From contig CAKKNE010000002.1 of the NCBI GenBank assembly GCA_918797485.1, forward strand, positions 5,146,001-5,210,000: a DNA stretch of 64,000 nucleotides, written 5' to 3'. Origin of the DNA: Pelagomonas calceolata (taxonomy: Eukaryota). Made by a program: the position numbers and the translations under genes. Below, piece by piece: positions 19,226-54,865 of the stretch; the first letter of the stretch is position 1, and each line of letters begins with the position of its first letter. Below the pieces are notes generated by a model. That model made no database searches, was not told the origin of the DNA, and saw only the letters and a program-made list of their open reading frames with translations.

Positions 19226-21417
19226 ATGGACATGTTAGGAGCCATGGGCCGGTCGGCCATGCGGTCGGGATCCATGGCGGCGCGAGCGGCCACCCAGGCC
19301 GGCGCCGCGGCCGTCGATAATGTTAGCTCAAAAGTCTGCGAGCGCTGCGGCGACACCAAAACGGGCTTTCGACTGACGACGTGCCCGTGCTGCGAGCGGA
19401 AGATCTGTGGGAGCTGTGGCGTCAAGGTCGTCGTGCCATCACAATGTGCCAAGTCTGGTGAAGGATGCGAGAAGGTGTCCTGCAAGGAGGAGTGCGCTCC
19501 TAGGTGTGTCGAAGTAGCTAGACAGATGTTCAGCGACGCGCTGAAGGCTTCTGTGGATGCGAACGTCGATTCCATATTAAACGGCAAGGACGACTTATTT
19601 GAGCGGCCGGACAAACCTGTGGTGGATGTCTCGGCGACGGCGTCCGCGAGGCGACTCTTACCGTTAGCCCTGAAGGCTGTGGAGTTGGCGGGCTACTCGG
19701 AGGTCATTTATGCTTACAAGCTCGCGGAGGGCGGCATCGTCGCCGCGCTGCTGACGCCGACCTTCCGCGTCTTCGTCGAGCGCGTTTTACCGATGCTGTC
19801 CAAGCACATCGAACGCGCGGGCGCCGAGATGGACACGAAGAAGAAGGGCGCGAAGGAGGCGGAGCTGGCTTTACGTTTATATTATCTAGCTTGCGGGGAG
19901 GCCGTGAAAAGGTTAAGTCATCCGCCGGACGAGGCGAAAGGCTCGCCCGCCTCGTCCAGGGAATTGGACTCGCTCGGCGCCTACGTCGGGCCGGCGCAGT
20001 GGCTCTACGCTGCTCATGAGTTAAGAGCACCGCAAGCGACGGCGGCGTGGGGCGCGTGGTACGTCAGTCGCTTGTGTCGGGCGGACGGCTGGCGGCTCGT
20101 CGCGTGTGTCGGGGCTTCTCGAGCTGAAGATTTTCGATTGGCGGTGCCGGGGTTGCCTCCCGTGCGGTTCCCGGCCTGGTGCTTGGCGTGTCGGGGCAAG
20201 GAGGCGGTCCTAGCCTTCCGCGGGTCGACGTCGCCGCAGGACTCTGCGTGGAAATCAACCAGTGAGTTAGGTTATCCACGCCATCGAGCAGATGCAGTTA
20301 CGGTGGGCACCCCGAAATTTGATTTCCACACAGGCAAGACTGGGCCATCAACAGCGAGTGTGATGAAGTAGCAATCTGCCACGAGAACGCTCCGAGTGAC
20401 TGGTCCGCCCACGGCGGCATGGTGCGGGCCGCTCGCGCGATTTTGTATGATTGTGGGGCCGCCTCAGCTGTTGCGAAGCTAAGGGCGAATGGTTTCCGAG
20501 TGAGATGTATAGGCCACTCCTTAGGTGCGGGTGTGGCCGCCCTAGCGACGACGCTGCTGAATCTCGACGACCCCTCGCACCCGCAAGTGACCGCTTCCCT
20601 CTATGCGGTGCCCGCATGTGCCTCACCAGCATTGGCCGAAGCGCTTAAGGAAACTGTAGAAGCAGCTATCCTGCGGGACGACGTCGTACCTAGATTATCG
20701 GAAAAACACTGCGCGCGACTCGCTAGAGAGGTGGTGGCGGACGACGCGCACTACCGCGAGGCCTTCGCGAAAGATCGGGCCGCGTATACGCGGTACTGCA
20801 ACACGCTCGGTAAGAAAGAAGGCATGGTCCACGCGAGTGAGGAGCCGCCGACGCCGCCGCCTCCCGTCCAAAAGGTGGAGCCTGTCAGGCTGCTCTCGGA
20901 TGATGATGTTAGGCCGCTCGTGCCGCCCGGGCGGCTCGTGTTCTGCCAGGGGCGCGACGGGGTGTTTGAAGCTCAATCAGCAGATTACACTTTGGAACCC
21001 TTGCAAGCGGTGCAGGTGACGCCGCGGGCCGTCGACGACCACTCGCTGGACGCCATCGCTTTTTCTTTGCGAGCCGTCAAGGCGCGGCGCGGGTCATCAC
21101 CAATCGTGAAGCCCGCACCATTAGCGCCAGCGAAGGTTGATGAGAAGTGGGTGCCGTGCTCCGTCTGCGGGTCGGACGTGACCTGGACGTCGTCCGTCCG
21201 CGGCAGCGACACGGCGCGCGCGTACTCGACACACCACTGCCGCGCGTGCGGTCAGGTGGTCTGCGCCTTCTGCGCGCCGGCGGCGGATTCCGTGGCTGCG
21301 GATGCCTTGGGCGAGACGCTGACCCTGCCGGACAAGCGCGTGACGCTGCCGTCCCGAGGTTGTCTCGGGCCTGTGAGGGTGTGCCGGCCGTGCCACTTCC
21401 GGGCCTACGACCTCTAA
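19226..21417 (+). CDS. Class 3 lipase flanked by N- and C-terminal FYVE-like zinc fingers; intron 20236-20333
   Basis: AFRGS, HGGM, GHSLGAG, DVVPRL; CSVC..HHCRACGQVVCAFC..RVCRPC; N-terminal CERC..CPCCERKICGSC. Confidence 0.85.
20236..20333 (+). mobile_element. Introner intron, GC-AG
   Basis: TSD GCAGGACT/GCAAGACT; TIRs CTGCGTGGAAATCAA...TTGATTTCCACACAG; removal restores frame. Confidence 0.9.
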
Positions 21418-50146: not shown

Positions 50147-51682
50147 ATGGCAGTCTCCAGCCTCGACGCGTTGGGCGTCGCCCCGGAGGACATGACGCCC
50201 GCCGAGGCCAAGGAGCTCGCGCGGTTGATGGAGCAGGTGCGCGCGCTCGAGGAGGGCACCTCTACGACACAGCGGAGGGAGACGCCGGCCCTGTTTACGG
50301 CAGAGGAGAAGCCGCAGCGCACGAGGAAACTCCAACGACCCAAAAGCGCGAGAGCGCGCTACCCGTCGAAGACGCTCGCGCGTTCAGCAAAAGACTTTGC
50401 GAAGAAGCAGCAAGCGTTTCGGGCCACGGAATTACGAGAAAAGGCCGAAGATAAACGGAACAAGGGCAACGCGTCTCCGGTCAAGGAAGAGCACGATGAT
50501 GCACCGGTGCCTCCCTCGGAGCCGCCCAAGGACGTCGTGACGCGCGTCGTGCTATGGCCCGAGTACGCTTTACTGAGAGATGGTGATGTCAGAGTGCATG
50601 TCGAGCGGCACTACCGCGAGGCGCCTCGAGGTGCACAGGCGCGGCGCGCTAGGCCTAGGTGGCAATTAATAGCGGCGGCCGAACGGGCGCGACGGCGCTT
50701 GTCATTAAGGTTAGATGCTCTCAGGAGGTACGGCCCGCCGGAGCTGCTGGGCGATGCGCGCGTGCACAGTCGCGGTGACCGACGGTCATCTCATAGAGTG
50801 AGGTGTGCGAAACTACGCTTATTACCTCAAAGTGTCGAGGTCGAGGAGCCGCCGCCCGCACCAATATCAGGGAGACTGGCTCAGACCAAAGAAAAAATAT
50901 CAAGGAACACGCCCGCGTTACATAATGGTAGGAATGCGCCGAAACAGGTGCCGATGCGGGAGGTCTGCGGCTTCTCGGTCCAGGTCGCGGCCCATGCTAG
51001 AGGTTCATTATATATGGACACCTTACACTCTACCTTAGCGAGAAAAGCTCTGGAGCGGAGCGGCGCCAAGCTGAGGCCACTGGGCACGTCGGATTTGGTC
51101 GAGGGCTTGATGGGCTGGCTCGCGCATTTGGGCATGCCCGTGTCGTCTGTAGATGCTCGTAGAATTGAAGAATATGAAAATGAACGCATCGCGAGGGATC
51201 GCGCCGACGAGGAGGAGCAGGCCGACGCGTTGGTGAGGATGCTTGTTGGTGTCGCGGGCACGGACGTGGCTTATGGTTCGTTAGTGGACCACTTGAGAGA
51301 TGCATTGGTACGCGCGCGAAACGCGGCGACGCCGGACGATTCATCATCTGAGGACGAAGAGGGCAATGATTTGGCGGCGTTCGGCGCTCGGGCTTATAGG
51401 GAAGTACGTCATCGCGTCGTCGACGTGGCGCGTCGAAGGGCGGCTAAAAGAGCGGTGGTCGCGGATGGCGCCAACCCTGACGACGCGGCGTTGGTACTGC
51501 GCCTCGCCAAATTAACGGACGATCACGGCCTGGACCTCCAGGAGATATTTCTGGATGCGCCGACGGCGGCGGGCGCCGTGCGGGCCGATGTGAGGGTGCC
51601 CGCGGCGCAGCTGCGGACGGGATTGAGAAGGATGCTGTGCTGCCTCGCTGAGGAGGAGTTTGAAGATCCTGGGGACGTGTAA
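50147..51682 (+). CDS. Hypothetical protein
   Basis: 511-aa open frame from MAVSSL. Confidence 0.6.
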   Translation: MAVSSLDALGVAPEDMTPAEAKELARLMEQVRALEEGTSTTQRRETPALFTAEEKPQRTRKLQRPKSARARYPSKTLARSAKDFAKKQQAFRATELREKAEDKRNKGNASPVKEEHDDAPVPPSEPPKDVVTRVVLWPEYALLRDGDVRVHVERHYREAPRGAQARRARPRWQLIAAAERARRRLSLRLDALRRYGPPELLGDARVHSRGDRRSSHRVRCAKLRLLPQSVEVEEPPPAPISGRLAQTKEKISRNTPALHNGRNAPKQVPMREVCGFSVQVAAHARGSLYMDTLHSTLARKALERSGAKLRPLGTSDLVEGLMGWLAHLGMPVSSVDARRIEEYENERIARDRADEEEQADALVRMLVGVAGTDVAYGSLVDHLRDALVRARNAATPDDSSSEDEEGNDLAAFGARAYREVRHRVVDVARRRAAKRAVVADGANPDDAALVLRLAKLTDDHGLDLQEIFLDAPTAAGAVRADVRVPAAQLRTGLRRMLCCLAEEEFEDPGDV

Positions 51683-51725
51683 TATAGGCGTCCTTAACTT
51701 AGGCGGACAATATTCCAAAATTCAT

Positions 51726-53790
51726 TCAGCGGCGGTCGTCGTACTCGCGCCGCCGGTCCCGGTAGTCGTCGCGCGGCGGAGACCGGTCCCGCGGCGGCGA
51801 CCGGCCCCGGGGCGGCGAGCGCCGCCGGTCCTGGTAGTCGTCGCGCGGCGGCGACCGCCGCCGGTCGTCGTAGCGGTCCCGGCGGTCGTAGTCGTCCCGC
51901 CGGTCGCGCGGCGGCGACCGCCGCCGGTCGTAGCGGTCGTCGCGGCGGTAGTCGCGGTCGCGCGAGTCGTAGCGCGGCGGCGAGCGCCTGTGTGCGGAGC
52001 GTGAGTTTCGTGGCTCCCGGTGGGACTCGAACCCACAATCTTCGCCTTAGGAGGGCGACGCCTTGTCCATTAGGCCACGAGAGCTATGAGTACAGACACC
52101 GCAGCACACCGTCTCGGCGGCGACCTCCGCCGGTCGTCGTAGCGGTCCCGCGAGTCGTAGCGCCGCCGCGGCGACGGCGAGCGGCCGCGGCGCCCAAAGT
52201 TCGGGTCCCAGCCCGACGCGTTCGGGTCGTGGCTGTAGCGGCAGGACGCGCCGCGCGTGCACCTGCGATGGATGCGCGGTGACGTTCCCTCCTCCCAGAA
52301 CGACGCGGCTCCCGGGTCGACGACGGCTCTCGGCGGGACTCGAACCCGCAATCTTCTCCTTAGGAGGGAGACGCCTTGTCCATTAGGCCACGAAAGCTTC
52401 TCAGATAGTTTGAAGGGGCTCCCGGCGGGACTCGAACCCGCAATCTTCGCCTTAGGAGGGCGACGCCTTGTCCATTAGGCCACGAGAGCGCTTCATGAGT
52501 AGAGACGCCGTATACCGCACCTTCCTTTCATGAAGTCGAAGCACACCTGGTCGTCGAAGCGCGCCCGAGGCGCGTTGTACCCGTCGGTCGTGATGCCGCC
52601 GGTGATGTCCTCGGCGCGCATTTTTCCGCGTTTTTCGTCGAACACTTGCACGAACTGCACGGTGTCCCCTTCGCGCAGGGCGTTGCCGTCCATGATGGCC
52701 GACACGTGGCAGAAGAGGTCCTCGCCGCCGTCGGGCTGCGGTGGGGGAATGACGCGTCAAGTTTTTGCTCGCGTGACCGATACGTGATTCGAACACGTAA
52801 CCTTCAGGACTGGAATCTGACGCGCTACCGTTGCGCCAATCGGTCAATGTTCACGTGTATGCATCCGGTGGGGTTCGAACCCACGCCTCCGAAGAGATTG
52901 GGGCTTAAATCCAACGCCTTAGACCAACTCGGCCACGGATACAAAGTGAACGGTCCGAGGACTCGTGATGATGGTGGGGTTCGAACCCACGCCCGAAGAC
53001 TGGTGCCTAAAACCAGCGCCTAGGGTCGCTCTTGCGAGCTTAGACCACTCGGCCACATCATCAACGTGCGCGATAGTGACAGGGTTCGAACGCGCATCGA
53101 TCTCGGTCAGAGAATCGATCCTGCGACCCTTACGGGAGTAGATTTCAAGTCTACCGCCTTAACCACTCGGCCACACTATCTTGCAACAAAGTCCAGGTAC
53201 CGCGGTGAGACCGATGCGGGAGTCGAACCCGCGACCTTCAGATGATTTTCCAGTCCATATCAGGTGAATGTGTGTGCGAGCGCCTATCCTCGGCGGGATT
53301 CGAACCCGCAACCCCCGGATTAGAAGTCCGATGCGCTATCCGTTGCGCCACGAGGATGGAGGCGACTCAACTCCGACGGGACTCGAACCCGCAACCCCCA
53401 GATTCGAAGTCTGATACGCTATCCATTGCGCCACGGAGTTAGGTGTGTGTTGGTGGAGGAGCAGGGGTTTGAACCCTGGGCTTTCCGCATGCAAAGCGGA
53501 CGCTCTGCCACTGAGCTACACCCCCTTTGAATACAGGACGCGGTAAAACGCGCCGGCTTGATGAAGCCAAACCCCCTATCGTTCCAGCGGCAGGCCGTGC
53601 CCGTGACGCGCTCGCCCGTTCCGTCGCCGATCTTGCCGCGCGTCGGCGAGCGAGAGGGACCGCGGCGCGGCGAGCGGCCGCGCGGCGGCGACCGGCCGCG
53701 CGGCGGCGACCGCGAGCGGCCGCGCGGCGGACTGCGGCCGCGCCCTGGGCTGCGGCCTAGGCCCGGGGGCGAGCGGGATCGGCTCGCCAT
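51726..53790 (-). CDS. RS/RD-rich cold-shock-domain + CCCH zinc-finger RNA-binding protein; exons 53790-53554, 52735-52521, 52262-52110, 51987-51726; tRNA host gene
   Basis: Spliced frame GTACRWNDRGFGFIKP|PDGGEDLFCHVSAI..LREGDTVQF (CSD); CFDFMKGR|CTRGASCRYSH (CCCH); RSPP repeats; intron 1 is GC-AG, introns 2-3 are GT-AG; phases consistent. Confidence 0.88.
52012..52084 (-). tRNA. tRNA-Arg(CCU), in intron 3
   Basis: GCTCTCG..TCGCC CT CCT AA GGCGA..GTTCGAGTC..CGGGAGC. Confidence 0.95.
52325..52397 (-). tRNA. tRNA-Arg(CCU), in intron 2
   Basis: Cloverleaf; TCTCC CT CCT AA GGAGA with a compensatory stem change. Confidence 0.95.
52417..52489 (-). tRNA. tRNA-Arg(CCU), in intron 2
   Basis: Cloverleaf near-identical to the 52012 copy. 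Confidence 0.95.
52774..52845 (-). tRNA. tRNA-Trp(CCA), in intron 1
   Basis: GACCGAT TGGCGCAACGGTAGCGCG TCAGA TT CCA GT CCTGA..GTTCGAATC..ATCGGTCA. Confidence 0.92.
52860..52942 (-). tRNA. tRNA-Leu(UAA), in intron 1
   Basis: TTGGA TT TAA GC CCCAA; long variable arm. Confidence 0.9.
52966..53062 (-). tRNA. tRNA-Leu(UAG) with 19-nt D-loop intron (53022-53040)
   Basis: CTGGT TT TAG GC ACCAG; removing the insert restores GAGTGGTCTAAGGCG. Confidence 0.88.
53071..53180 (-). tRNA. tRNA-Ser(UGA) with 29-nt T-arm intron (53091-53119)
   Basis: GTAGA CT TGA AA TCTAC; variable arm; removing the insert restores GCAGG TTCGAAC CCTGT. Confidence 0.88.
53208..53256 (-). tRNA. Orphan tRNA 3' half (positions 38-73) with short leader; fits the tRNA-Trp 5' half
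   Basis: ATCTGAAGGTCGCGGGTTCGACTCCCGCATCGGTC-T; no adjacent D-arm or 5' acceptor strand. Confidence 0.7.
53285..53357 (-). tRNA. tRNA-Arg(UCU)
   Basis: ATCCTCG..TCGGA CT TCT AA TCCGG..CGAGGAT. Confidence 0.94.
53368..53440 (-). tRNA. tRNA-Arg(UCG)
   Basis: AACTCCG..TCAGA CT TCG AA TCTGG..CGGAGTT. Confidence 0.94.
53454..53525 (-). tRNA. tRNA-Ala(UGC)
   Basis: G3:U70; TCCGC TT TGC AT GCGGA. Confidence 0.93.
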
Positions 53791-54358: not shown

Positions 54359-54865
54359 ATGGCCGGCGTCAAAGCAGTAATACGACTGCGCTGCCCGGCG
54401 GGCGTGGCCAAGCCGGGCCCGGCCATCGGCCAGGCGCTCGGCCCGCACGGCTTAAATATGATGGACTTCGTGAAGGAGTTCAATGCCGCGACGCAAAAAA
54501 TGGAGCCGAACTCGCCCATCCCCGTCGTGCTGACCGCTTACGCGAACCGCACGTTTTCTTTTGTGACGAAGACGCCGCCGACCTCGTACCTCGTGCGGAA
54601 AGCGTTAGGTATCGACAAGGGCGCCCAGAACCCGGGCGACGAGGTGGTAGGCACGCTGAACATGGAGCAAGTATCGGCCATCGCCGAGGTGAAGAAAGGC
54701 GACGCGCATTTAGCGAACATTCCGTTCGACGCTTTGTGTGATTCTGTGATCGGTACGGCTCGAAGCATGGGCGTGCTGCTGGCCGACGACGTCGACGACG
54801 CGTCGTCGTCGTCGTCTTCCTCTTCTTCGTCGGACGAGGACGAGGACGGCGAGCCGGGGAGGTGA
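54359..54865 (+). CDS. Organellar (probably mitochondrial) ribosomal protein uL11
   Basis: AGVAKPGPAIGQALG, F.KEFNAAT, IPV, FSFVTKTPP, GTARSMG. Confidence 0.93.
   Translation: MAGVKAVIRLRCPAGVAKPGPAIGQALGPHGLNMMDFVKEFNAATQKMEPNSPIPVVLTAYANRTFSFVTKTPPTSYLVRKALGIDKGAQNPGDEVVGTLNMEQVSAIAEVKKGDAHLANIPFDALCDSVIGTARSMGVLLADDVDDASSSSSSSSSSDEDEDGEPGR

Follow-up and report, generated by a model that had tools for sequence, protein, structure and literature searches.

To our knowledge, nuclear tRNAs are held to be products of RNA polymerase III (Pol III), the tRNA-Sec of trypanosomes being the tested exception. In Trypanosoma brucei, this nuclear tRNA is made from an RNA polymerase II (Pol II) precursor (Aeby et al. 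2010, PMC2943599), and intronic small nucleolar RNAs (snoRNAs) are named there as an analogy. In Caenorhabditis, tRNA genes lie inside the introns of protein-coding genes, the pairing with the host is conserved between species, and the host promoter affects expression (Sagi et al. 2016, PMC4999229). Nuclear tRNAs of Cyanidioschyzon merolae contain introns of the bulge-helix-bulge (BHB) type in the D- and T-arms; the same alga has permuted tRNA genes, and no homologs were found for its A/B-box-binding TFIIIC subunits (Soma et al. 2013, PMC3728597). Chlamydomonas has tRNA gene islands, in which at least five genes of mixed isotype are clustered within 5 kb, and protist tRNA genes are described as almost exclusively (PMC13578239) or mostly (PMC13437025) singletons. 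Here we describe a gene of Pelagomonas calceolata in which ten tRNAs lie in sense orientation within three introns; its product combines a cold-shock domain (CSD), a CCCH finger and arginine-serine (RS) repeats. The gene was analyzed in a stretch of 64,000 nucleotides (nt) of contig CAKKNE010000002.1 (assembly GCA_918797485.1, positions 5,146,001 to 5,210,000), hereafter the window, and coordinates are counted from its first letter.

We found no description of such an arrangement of tRNAs in introns in the literature searched, the scope of which ended short of subscription papers and some supplements (PMC9481584, PMC10328945, bioRxiv). Intronic or polycistronic tRNAs and pelagophytes are not mentioned in the abstract and sections 14, 20 and 21 of a 2026 review (PMC13578239), and the word tRNA does not occur in the main text of two pelagophyte genome papers.

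Results

tRNAs in all three introns of a cold-shock domain gene

Rfam identified ten tRNAs in the window, every one on the minus strand between 52012 and 53525, and ARAGORN recovered eight of them, missing tRNA-Ser(UGA) and tRNA-Leu(UAG); relaxed ARAGORN output, with 50 genes in the window, was rejected as noise. The ten tRNAs lie in the introns of a minus-strand gene (53790-51726), the four exons of which join into a stop-free open reading frame (ORF) of 288 amino acids. An initial annotation of this DNA, made from the letters alone, had placed sense tRNAs in all three introns (seven plus a half, two, and one), and the two programs together with the exon join bear this layout out.

Intron 1 (52736..53553, 818 nt, GC-AG) contains seven tRNAs and an orphan tRNA half; it occupies the same position in two related loci, with a GC donor in L007 and a GT donor in L005. 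GC-AG introns make up about 14% of P. calceolata introns (10.1101/2024.10.30.620910). In the direction of host transcription, intron 1 carries tRNA-Ala(UGC) (53454..53525, Rfam 66.4 bits, also found by ARAGORN), which begins 28 nt past the donor, tRNA-Arg(UCG) (53368..53440, 63.8 bits), tRNA-Arg(UCU) (53285..53357, 69.7 bits), the half, tRNA-Ser(UGA) (53071..53180, 47.9 bits), tRNA-Leu(UAG) (52966..53062, 53.3 bits), tRNA-Leu(UAA) (52860..52942, 51.6 bits), which is missing from the L005 lineage, and tRNA-Trp(CCA) (52774..52845, 61.8 bits), which has an A31-C39 mismatch and ends 38 nt short of the acceptor. Intron 2 (52263..52520, 258 nt, GT-AG), missing or located elsewhere in close haplotypes, holds two copies of tRNA-Arg(CCU) (52417..52489, 67.6 bits; 52325..52397, 67.1 bits), and intron 3 (51988..52109, 122 nt, GT-AG), often retained and absent from L005, holds a third (52012..52084, 67.6 bits). 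Six of the seven spacers between tRNAs of the same intron measure 8-23 nt (13, 10, 8, 23, 14 and 19 nt), as had been noted initially for most of them, and the seventh, of 104 nt, contains the half. CA-repeat words in the spacers 53453-53441 and 53284-53266 recur in the spacer of a paralog (see below) and in a Trp-Trp spacer of another locus.

The nine non-Trp tRNAs read minor codons: the codons that they read exactly account for 5-12% of their amino acid (22 ORFs of the window, 11,791 codons). The label of a minor-codon cassette is tentative, since tRNAs with U34 may, by wobble, also read the major codons that end in G. Pattern scans for the Trp tRNA, tRNA-Arg(CCU) and the half gave no matches in viral contigs, and none for tRNA-Arg(CCU) in prokaryote genomes.

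The host protein has RS repeats at its N terminus and ends in a long tail of RS and arginine-aspartate (RD) repeats; between them lie a CSD, interrupted by intron 1, and a C-x7-C-x5-C-x3-H finger, interrupted by intron 2. Pfam places PF00313 (CSD) on exon 2 (E 1.7e-6) and gives weak CCCH matches on exon 3; exons 2 and 3 agree with a P. calceolata database protein, P0030, letter for letter over the length of the latter. Exon 1 (53554..53790), delimited by the ORF join and by read ends at the exon 2 boundary, encodes the RS repeats and the first part of the CSD, and exon 2 (52521..52735), with read depths of about 490-600 and 300-380, the rest of the CSD and the first part of the finger. The remainder of the finger and the start of the RS/RD region are in exon 3 (52110..52262; ORF join, Pfam), and the RS/RD repeats with the TGA stop codon in exon 4 (51726..51987).

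Splicing and intron RNA

The RNA evidence comes from four of 24 listed runs, among them two poly(A) libraries of one sample (X21 and X22) and a DNA-type run (X13). The read mapping spans 51650-52855, ending short of the intron 1 donor, the six upstream tRNAs, the half and both BHB insertions. The intron 2 joint is covered by 235 reads in X21, 145 reads in X22 and one contig of run X17. At the intron 1 acceptor, 125 and 74 reads (X21 and X22) go on into the last letters of exon 1, and because they carry these letters the GC donor is fixed. RNA reads, which the initial annotation had named as a check of the three junctions, therefore establish splicing of introns 1 and 2; for intron 3 the joint is present in one X17 contig only (depth 27.5), and P0030 keeps this intron. 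The contrary outcome named there, exons that are not spliced together, did not occur, as read joints connect the exons.

In the tRNA-free tail of intron 2 (52265-52305), sense depth exceeds antisense depth (64.6 vs 4.0 in X21, 19.3 vs 0 in X22), and roughly a fifth and an eighth of the spliced plus unspliced molecules are unspliced there; introns 2 and 3 are frequently unspliced in poly(A) RNA. Read coverage of exons 3-4 is thin and mixed with reads of another RS gene. The possibility that intron 3 is an assembly artefact was rejected, the intron being found in L001, L002, L007, L008 and the X17 contig. Read joints 51899-52131 and 52163-51927 were set aside as host splicing and ascribed most likely to another RS-repeat gene, because the DNA-type run X13 has them too. 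Since X13 has hardly any coverage of exon 2, it does not serve as a control for the intron 2 joint.

Reads at the Trp tRNA reach a depth of up to 759, and many of them continue into the flanks of other loci (in X21, 494+120 past the 3' end and 299 past the 5' end). Among these are Trp-Trp tandems (119+54 and 40+18 reads) and joins of a tRNA T-arm with Trp, all sense reads of poly(A) libraries, in which the spacers measure about 30 nt at most; tightly spaced tRNAs therefore occur in long sense RNA elsewhere in the genome, too. One Trp T-stem variant among the reads at 52770-52847 is compensatory (52785, 52795).

Terminators, promoters and intron geometry

Between 51600 and 54000, the host strand has three T4 runs: the first tRNA is preceded by one (53548-53545), another is located inside the anticodon arm of tRNA-Leu(UAG) (53012-53009), and the third lies just past the stop codon (51720-51717). 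The statement of the initial annotation that no run of four or more T follows any tRNA until past the host stop is correct for the DNA outside the tRNAs, and fails for the run in tRNA-Leu(UAG), which follows four tRNAs and is the sole T4 from the first tRNA to the stop codon. Including the related loci described below, we scanned 64 tRNA-type 3' ends and found T4 or longer within 30 nt behind four of them overall and behind none of the 11 in the window, compared to a background of 4.7-5.3% of 30-nt windows; none follows the last tRNA of any intron. The four cases represent one T5 site (L002, L007 and L008) and one T4 (L060). The absence of T4 alone is at chance level; what counts is that T4 is not enriched behind the tRNAs, and the oligo-T terminator that follows a stand-alone Pol III gene was not found here.

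The distance from the donor to the first tRNA is 24-35 nt in all 15 introns located (16 were sought), and the distance from the last tRNA to the acceptor is 24-63 nt in 13 of 13 introns; with distances so short, the introns are little more than their cargo. In the 60-nt stretches upstream of the first tRNAs, TATAWA was found in 0 of 14 and plain TATA in two of 14. No fixed upstream promoter travels with the intron that carries two Arg tRNAs, because different exon sequence precedes it in different haplotypes. A motif 15-17 nt past each donor was rejected as a promoter because it is tied to the donor and not to the tRNA, is not enriched across the window (67 occurrences vs 61.3 in shuffles), and is present in a tRNA-free candidate intron (at 21225, minus strand, about 283 nt), soon after the donor.

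A second lineage, a paralog and moving introns

A metagenome scan with exon 2 gave 80 loci, in 13 of which ARAGORN found 41 tRNAs, all 41 in the sense of the host; Rfam found 33 in nine of those loci, again all sense. One of the loci is L005, with exon 2 89% identical and intron 1 about 83% identical to those of the window and with synteny over several genes on both sides. Its intron 1 has the same site and the same order of tRNAs and half, minus tRNA-Leu(UAA); L005 has one tRNA-Arg(CCU) in intron 2 and no intron 3. The cassette, for which a synteny check had been suggested at the outset, recurs in a second, syntenic lineage. In a Gly-rich paralog with two CSDs (L057, L059, L060, L066 and L067), an intron with tRNA-Ala(UGC) and tRNA-Arg(UCG) lies in the second CSD, a few codons further on, and the order of the two tRNAs is reversed in L060.

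The position of the two-Arg intron is GR|C in the window and F|V in L007 and L008 (85% identity over about 250 nt), whereas L001 lacks it at both sites; the leaders of introns 2 and 3 are alike. Database proteins hint at further two-Arg sites (P0003, P0013) and at alleles with both sites (P0043-type), with chimeras being possible. Two loci were rejected as alleles, being possible assembly chimeras through the Arg repeat: L002, with a partial exon duplication, and L003, with a jump to another gene. In L002 (390-700), exon 2 is partly duplicated around the two-Arg intron, which fits an unequal crossover between both intron positions or an assembly chimera. In L003 (318-1137), tRNA-Arg(CCU) and the intron tail run into an exon of a TRM13 tRNA-methyltransferase; the contig is probably chimeric, and taken at face value it suggests a tRNA-modifying gene hosting a tRNA. 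Mis-called database proteins that run into tRNA-Arg(CCU) suggest further host genes for this tRNA, one of them ion-transport-like (P0025, Pfam E 0.0047) and two others without a name; these proteins say nothing on strand because the query was a sense translation.

Pelagomonas calceolata has 956 putative introner copies (PMC9481584). The introner elements of pelagophytes, details of which are reportedly given in Huff 2016, resemble the tRNA introns in being present in some alleles only, in GT or GC donors and in a short repeat at the insertion site. The two-Arg intron shows the presence/absence polymorphism at exon sites that characterizes introners, and six letters fit both sides of the intron 2 joint, overlapping the ordinary donor consensus. 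The tRNA introns differ in their tRNA cargo and in that movement is seen within one gene only, and inspection of the aligned intron ends by eye revealed no terminal inverted repeats; because a short site repeat occurs without such a repeat, we did not file the two-Arg introns as introners.

Predicted BHB-type introns in tRNA-Ser(UGA) and tRNA-Leu(UAG)

The two tRNAs missed by ARAGORN carry insertions, of 29 nt (53119-53091, at position 53/54) in the T-arm of tRNA-Ser(UGA) and of 19 nt (53040-53022) in the D-loop of tRNA-Leu(UAG), which are predicted BHB-type introns according to folding models. In each fold, exon and insertion pair in a 4-bp helix, accompanied by two 3-nt bulges and, within the insertion, by a helix of 4-6 bp; when both bulges are cut behind their second base, the canonical arm is regained (Ser 53/54, Leu D-loop). 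The fold is kept in all four Ser copies and all four complete Leu copies, with three different insertion sequences in each case, and a partial Leu variant has it as well. Because the exon-side helix adjoining the bulge amounts to only 0 bp (Ser) and 1 bp (Leu), short of strict hBHBh', we assigned the relaxed HBh' form, a name used in PMC4090602. For tRNA-Ser(UGA), ARAGORN was discarded as a judge of the cut site, since it called a tRNA for three of three candidate cuts, and we settled on the 29-nt cut on the grounds that a canonical T-arm results from it. The idea that this insertion destroys the B box was also rejected: the unspliced DNA still resembles one. It should be noted that tRNAscan-SE seeks non-canonical introns in its archaeal mode (PMC8450103), and such tRNA genes may be missed for that reason.

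An orphan tRNA 3' half

The half in intron 1 (53208..53243, minus strand) corresponds to tRNA positions 38-73, with U73, and has a leader at about 53265-53244 and a conserved tail at 53207-53199; Rfam recognizes no family in it beyond a T-arm. It is conserved in L005 with one compensatory T-stem pair, which did not reach significance in an alignment of four rows (121 of 500 shuffles). Within the locus, tRNA-Trp alone offers a complementary 5' half, 362 nt downstream, and the two cofold into a cloverleaf at -49.1 kcal/mol, compared to -24.0 kcal/mol apart; in L005, the cofold is weaker and the cloverleaf incomplete. Trp positions 37-40 pair with four bases of the leader, in the same register in both lineages and with one covarying pair, several registers having been tried first. 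As in a permuted gene, the 3' half lies upstream of the complementary 5' half; that 5' half, however, has its own 3' half, the Trp gene being complete. A BHB motif is not formed, as the 4-bp pairing of the leader lacks flanking helices, and U73 is unusual for tRNA-Trp. The half may be a relic, or it may act with a Trp-type 5' half, in trans or as a permuted alternative. The spacer before one Trp copy of another locus is complementary to the conserved tail of the half and marks a possible trans partner.

Pol III and tRNA-processing machinery

We examined about 14,640 of the 16,667 genes (88%) annotated in supplement file 4 of PMC9481584, with most of chromosome 6 left out. This part lists the Pol III subunits RPC1, 2, 3, 5 and 6, Brf1, Bdp1, Maf1, La and SNAP43, as well as three RNase P subunits, RNase Z, two catalytic Sen subunits and Sen54. 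Within it, no TFIIIC row was found under 17 names or accession numbers, the string IIIC matching HAD phosphatases only, and there was no row for TFIIIA, which may be annotated merely as a zinc-finger protein.

Codons near the donors and the neighboring gene

The host has four AGA/AGG codons, and each of them either spans one of the three donors or precedes it by no more than 24 nt (53577-53554, 52544-52520 and 52133-52110), in stretches that hold only seven of the 74 Arg codons (p about 3e-5 for the clustering, post hoc). Other A/T-ending codons also cluster near the donors, alleles without intron 2 have CGA/CGG at the codon concerned, and L005 and L007 have introns without the AGA/AGG shift. 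A divergent ribosomal protein L11 gene (Pfam) lies at 54359-54865 on the plus strand, about 570 nt upstream of the host start, and is syntenic in L005; a promoter region shared with the host is possible.

Discussion

The observations made here comprise the layout of the locus, the splicing of introns 1 and 2, sense unspliced intron RNA, and conservation in a second lineage and in a paralog. We consider it probable, if far from certain, that the tRNAs are made from the Pol II transcript of the host and released in the manner of snoRNAs by RNase P and RNase Z. Strand, spacing, the lack of terminators, the lack of TATA and the missing TFIIIC annotation favor release from host RNA. The initial annotation had proposed such a release, or else one from a long Pol III precursor, and splicing and the sense intron RNA agree with the former as well; RNA chaperone, as the host is called there, is a putative function deduced solely from its Pfam domains. 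That annotation did not include the BHB-type tRNA introns, the changing site of the Arg intron or the minor-codon bias.

Under this proposal, mature tRNAs would come from the host Pol II transcript, and RNase P and RNase Z would cut each tRNA from the excised intron or the pre-mRNA, probably after splicing, because earlier cutting would sever the mRNA. The tRNA splicing endonuclease would remove the insertions of tRNA-Ser(UGA) and tRNA-Leu(UAG) by reading the BHB-type fold. The driver may be loss or extreme divergence of TFIIIC, which would leave the A and B boxes unread, as reported for C. merolae; host introns, not upstream TATA boxes, would solve the promoter problem here, and host transcription would, via the cassette, set the supply of the minor-codon tRNAs.

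Several findings weigh against a Pol II origin. Every intact tRNA has A and B boxes, recognized as motifs of the D-arm and T-arm, and even the unspliced Ser gene retains its B-box-like run. Several first tRNAs are closely preceded by CA/CAA motifs of the kind typical of Pol III starts, and in relatives a T5 follows the first tRNA-Arg(CCU) (L002, L007 and L008) or a T4 lies between Arg and Ala (L060). Unspliced sense RNA is expected of any sense-nested gene, whichever polymerase transcribes the tRNA; among the read ends listed for 51650-52855, none accumulate at the boundaries of tRNAs, and no X21 or X22 read crosses the intron 3 joint. The count of 41 sense tRNAs is weaker than it appears, because the copies represent only about three independent intron lineages. 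The absence of TFIIIC refers to an annotation table without most of chromosome 6 and without another stramenopile as control, so that divergence of TFIIIC or a failure of annotation is possible.

The strongest alternative, which we regard as clearly less likely, is that each intron yields a single polycistronic pre-tRNA, begun by Pol III in the short leader and cut by RNase P and RNase Z, the intron serving as shelter only. Dicistronic Pol III pre-tRNAs are known in yeasts, and Cognat 2008 is said to describe co-transcription of Chlamydomonas tRNA genes. The 8-23-nt spacers would suit such co-transcription, Pol III with Brf1, Bdp1, SNAP43 and La is annotated, and the CA/CAA motifs speak for it, too. 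However, no T4 lies behind the last tRNA of any intron, and a transcript starting at tRNA-Ala would meet the T4 inside tRNA-Leu(UAG) or else run for about 1.8 kb; the upstream stretches without TATAWA and the missing TFIIIC row count against it, too.

It is improbable that each tRNA is an ordinary intron-nested Pol III gene, as in C. elegans, gaining from the host only open chromatin. Intronic tRNA genes with conserved host pairing and an influence of the host promoter are documented (PMC4999229), and the A and B boxes and the T5/T4 runs behind four tRNA copies in relatives would fit such genes, but the spacers are too short for TFIIIB upstream of the inner genes, all copies are sense, terminators are not enriched, and insertions in the D-loop and T-arm accompany TFIIIC-independent transcription in C. 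merolae (PMC3728597). Least of all do we believe that the copies are mainly cis-elements or passengers of mobile introns that tune host splicing while the working tRNA pool comes from other loci: the two-Arg intron at different positions in near-identical alleles, the often unspliced introns 2 and 3, and the Trp and Arg(CCU) copies at other loci would suit this, whereas six tRNAs and the half stay in the same order in intron 1 of a lineage with about 83% identity, and conservation extends to the tRNA bodies and BHB-type folds but not to the spacers and insertion loops.

A wider version of the Pol II proposal can be put forward only tentatively, namely that TFIIIC was lost in Pelagomonas and its relatives and that their nuclear tRNA genes came to lie in spliceosomal introns. 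The tRNA pool, in large part or entirely, would then be made snoRNA-style from Pol II hosts, with archaeal-type BHB splicing of some tRNAs, a permuted alternative of tRNA-Trp and hopping tRNA introns, and the CSD-CCCH-RS gene would act as a master switch for minor-codon tRNAs. A conserved intronic operon of ten tRNAs in an abundant, culturable alga makes the routine production of tRNAs from Pol II introns directly testable, and ties this question to a checkable genomic cause, the loss of TFIIIC. If true, BHB-type tRNA introns in the D-loop and T-arm would be extended to the stramenopile nucleus, standard tRNA finders would under-call the pelagophyte lineage, and the gain and loss of introns among living haplotypes would be driven by functional cargo.

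In C. elegans, 56% of the intronic tRNAs are sense, they are modelled as Pol III units, and release from pre-mRNA is treated as only theoretical in the passages cited (PMC4999229), whereas the tRNAs of the alga are all sense, 8-23 nt apart for the most part, without terminators, and fill nearly the whole intron. The Pol II origin proposed here would be shared with the tRNA-Sec of T. brucei; that is one species located between the genes of a polycistron and without A/B boxes (PMC2943599), in contrast to ten standard elongator tRNAs in cis-spliced introns. The mixed-isotype islands of Chlamydomonas have mixed orientation and are not described as intronic in the sections cited (PMC13578239). Cyanidioschyzon merolae, similar in its BHB-type introns, differs in that its tRNA genes have TATA-like and T-stretch signals (PMC3728597). 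Intronic snoRNA clusters, too, are sense small RNAs in introns of an RNA-related host at a near-fixed distance to a splice site; as with snoRNAs, the cargo here lies in spliced introns (for intron 3, in one contig) and is always sense (10/10 in the window, 41/41 in the 80 loci), while the cargo of the alga is tRNA, the predicted cutting is by RNase P and RNase Z, and the fixed distance is that to the donor.

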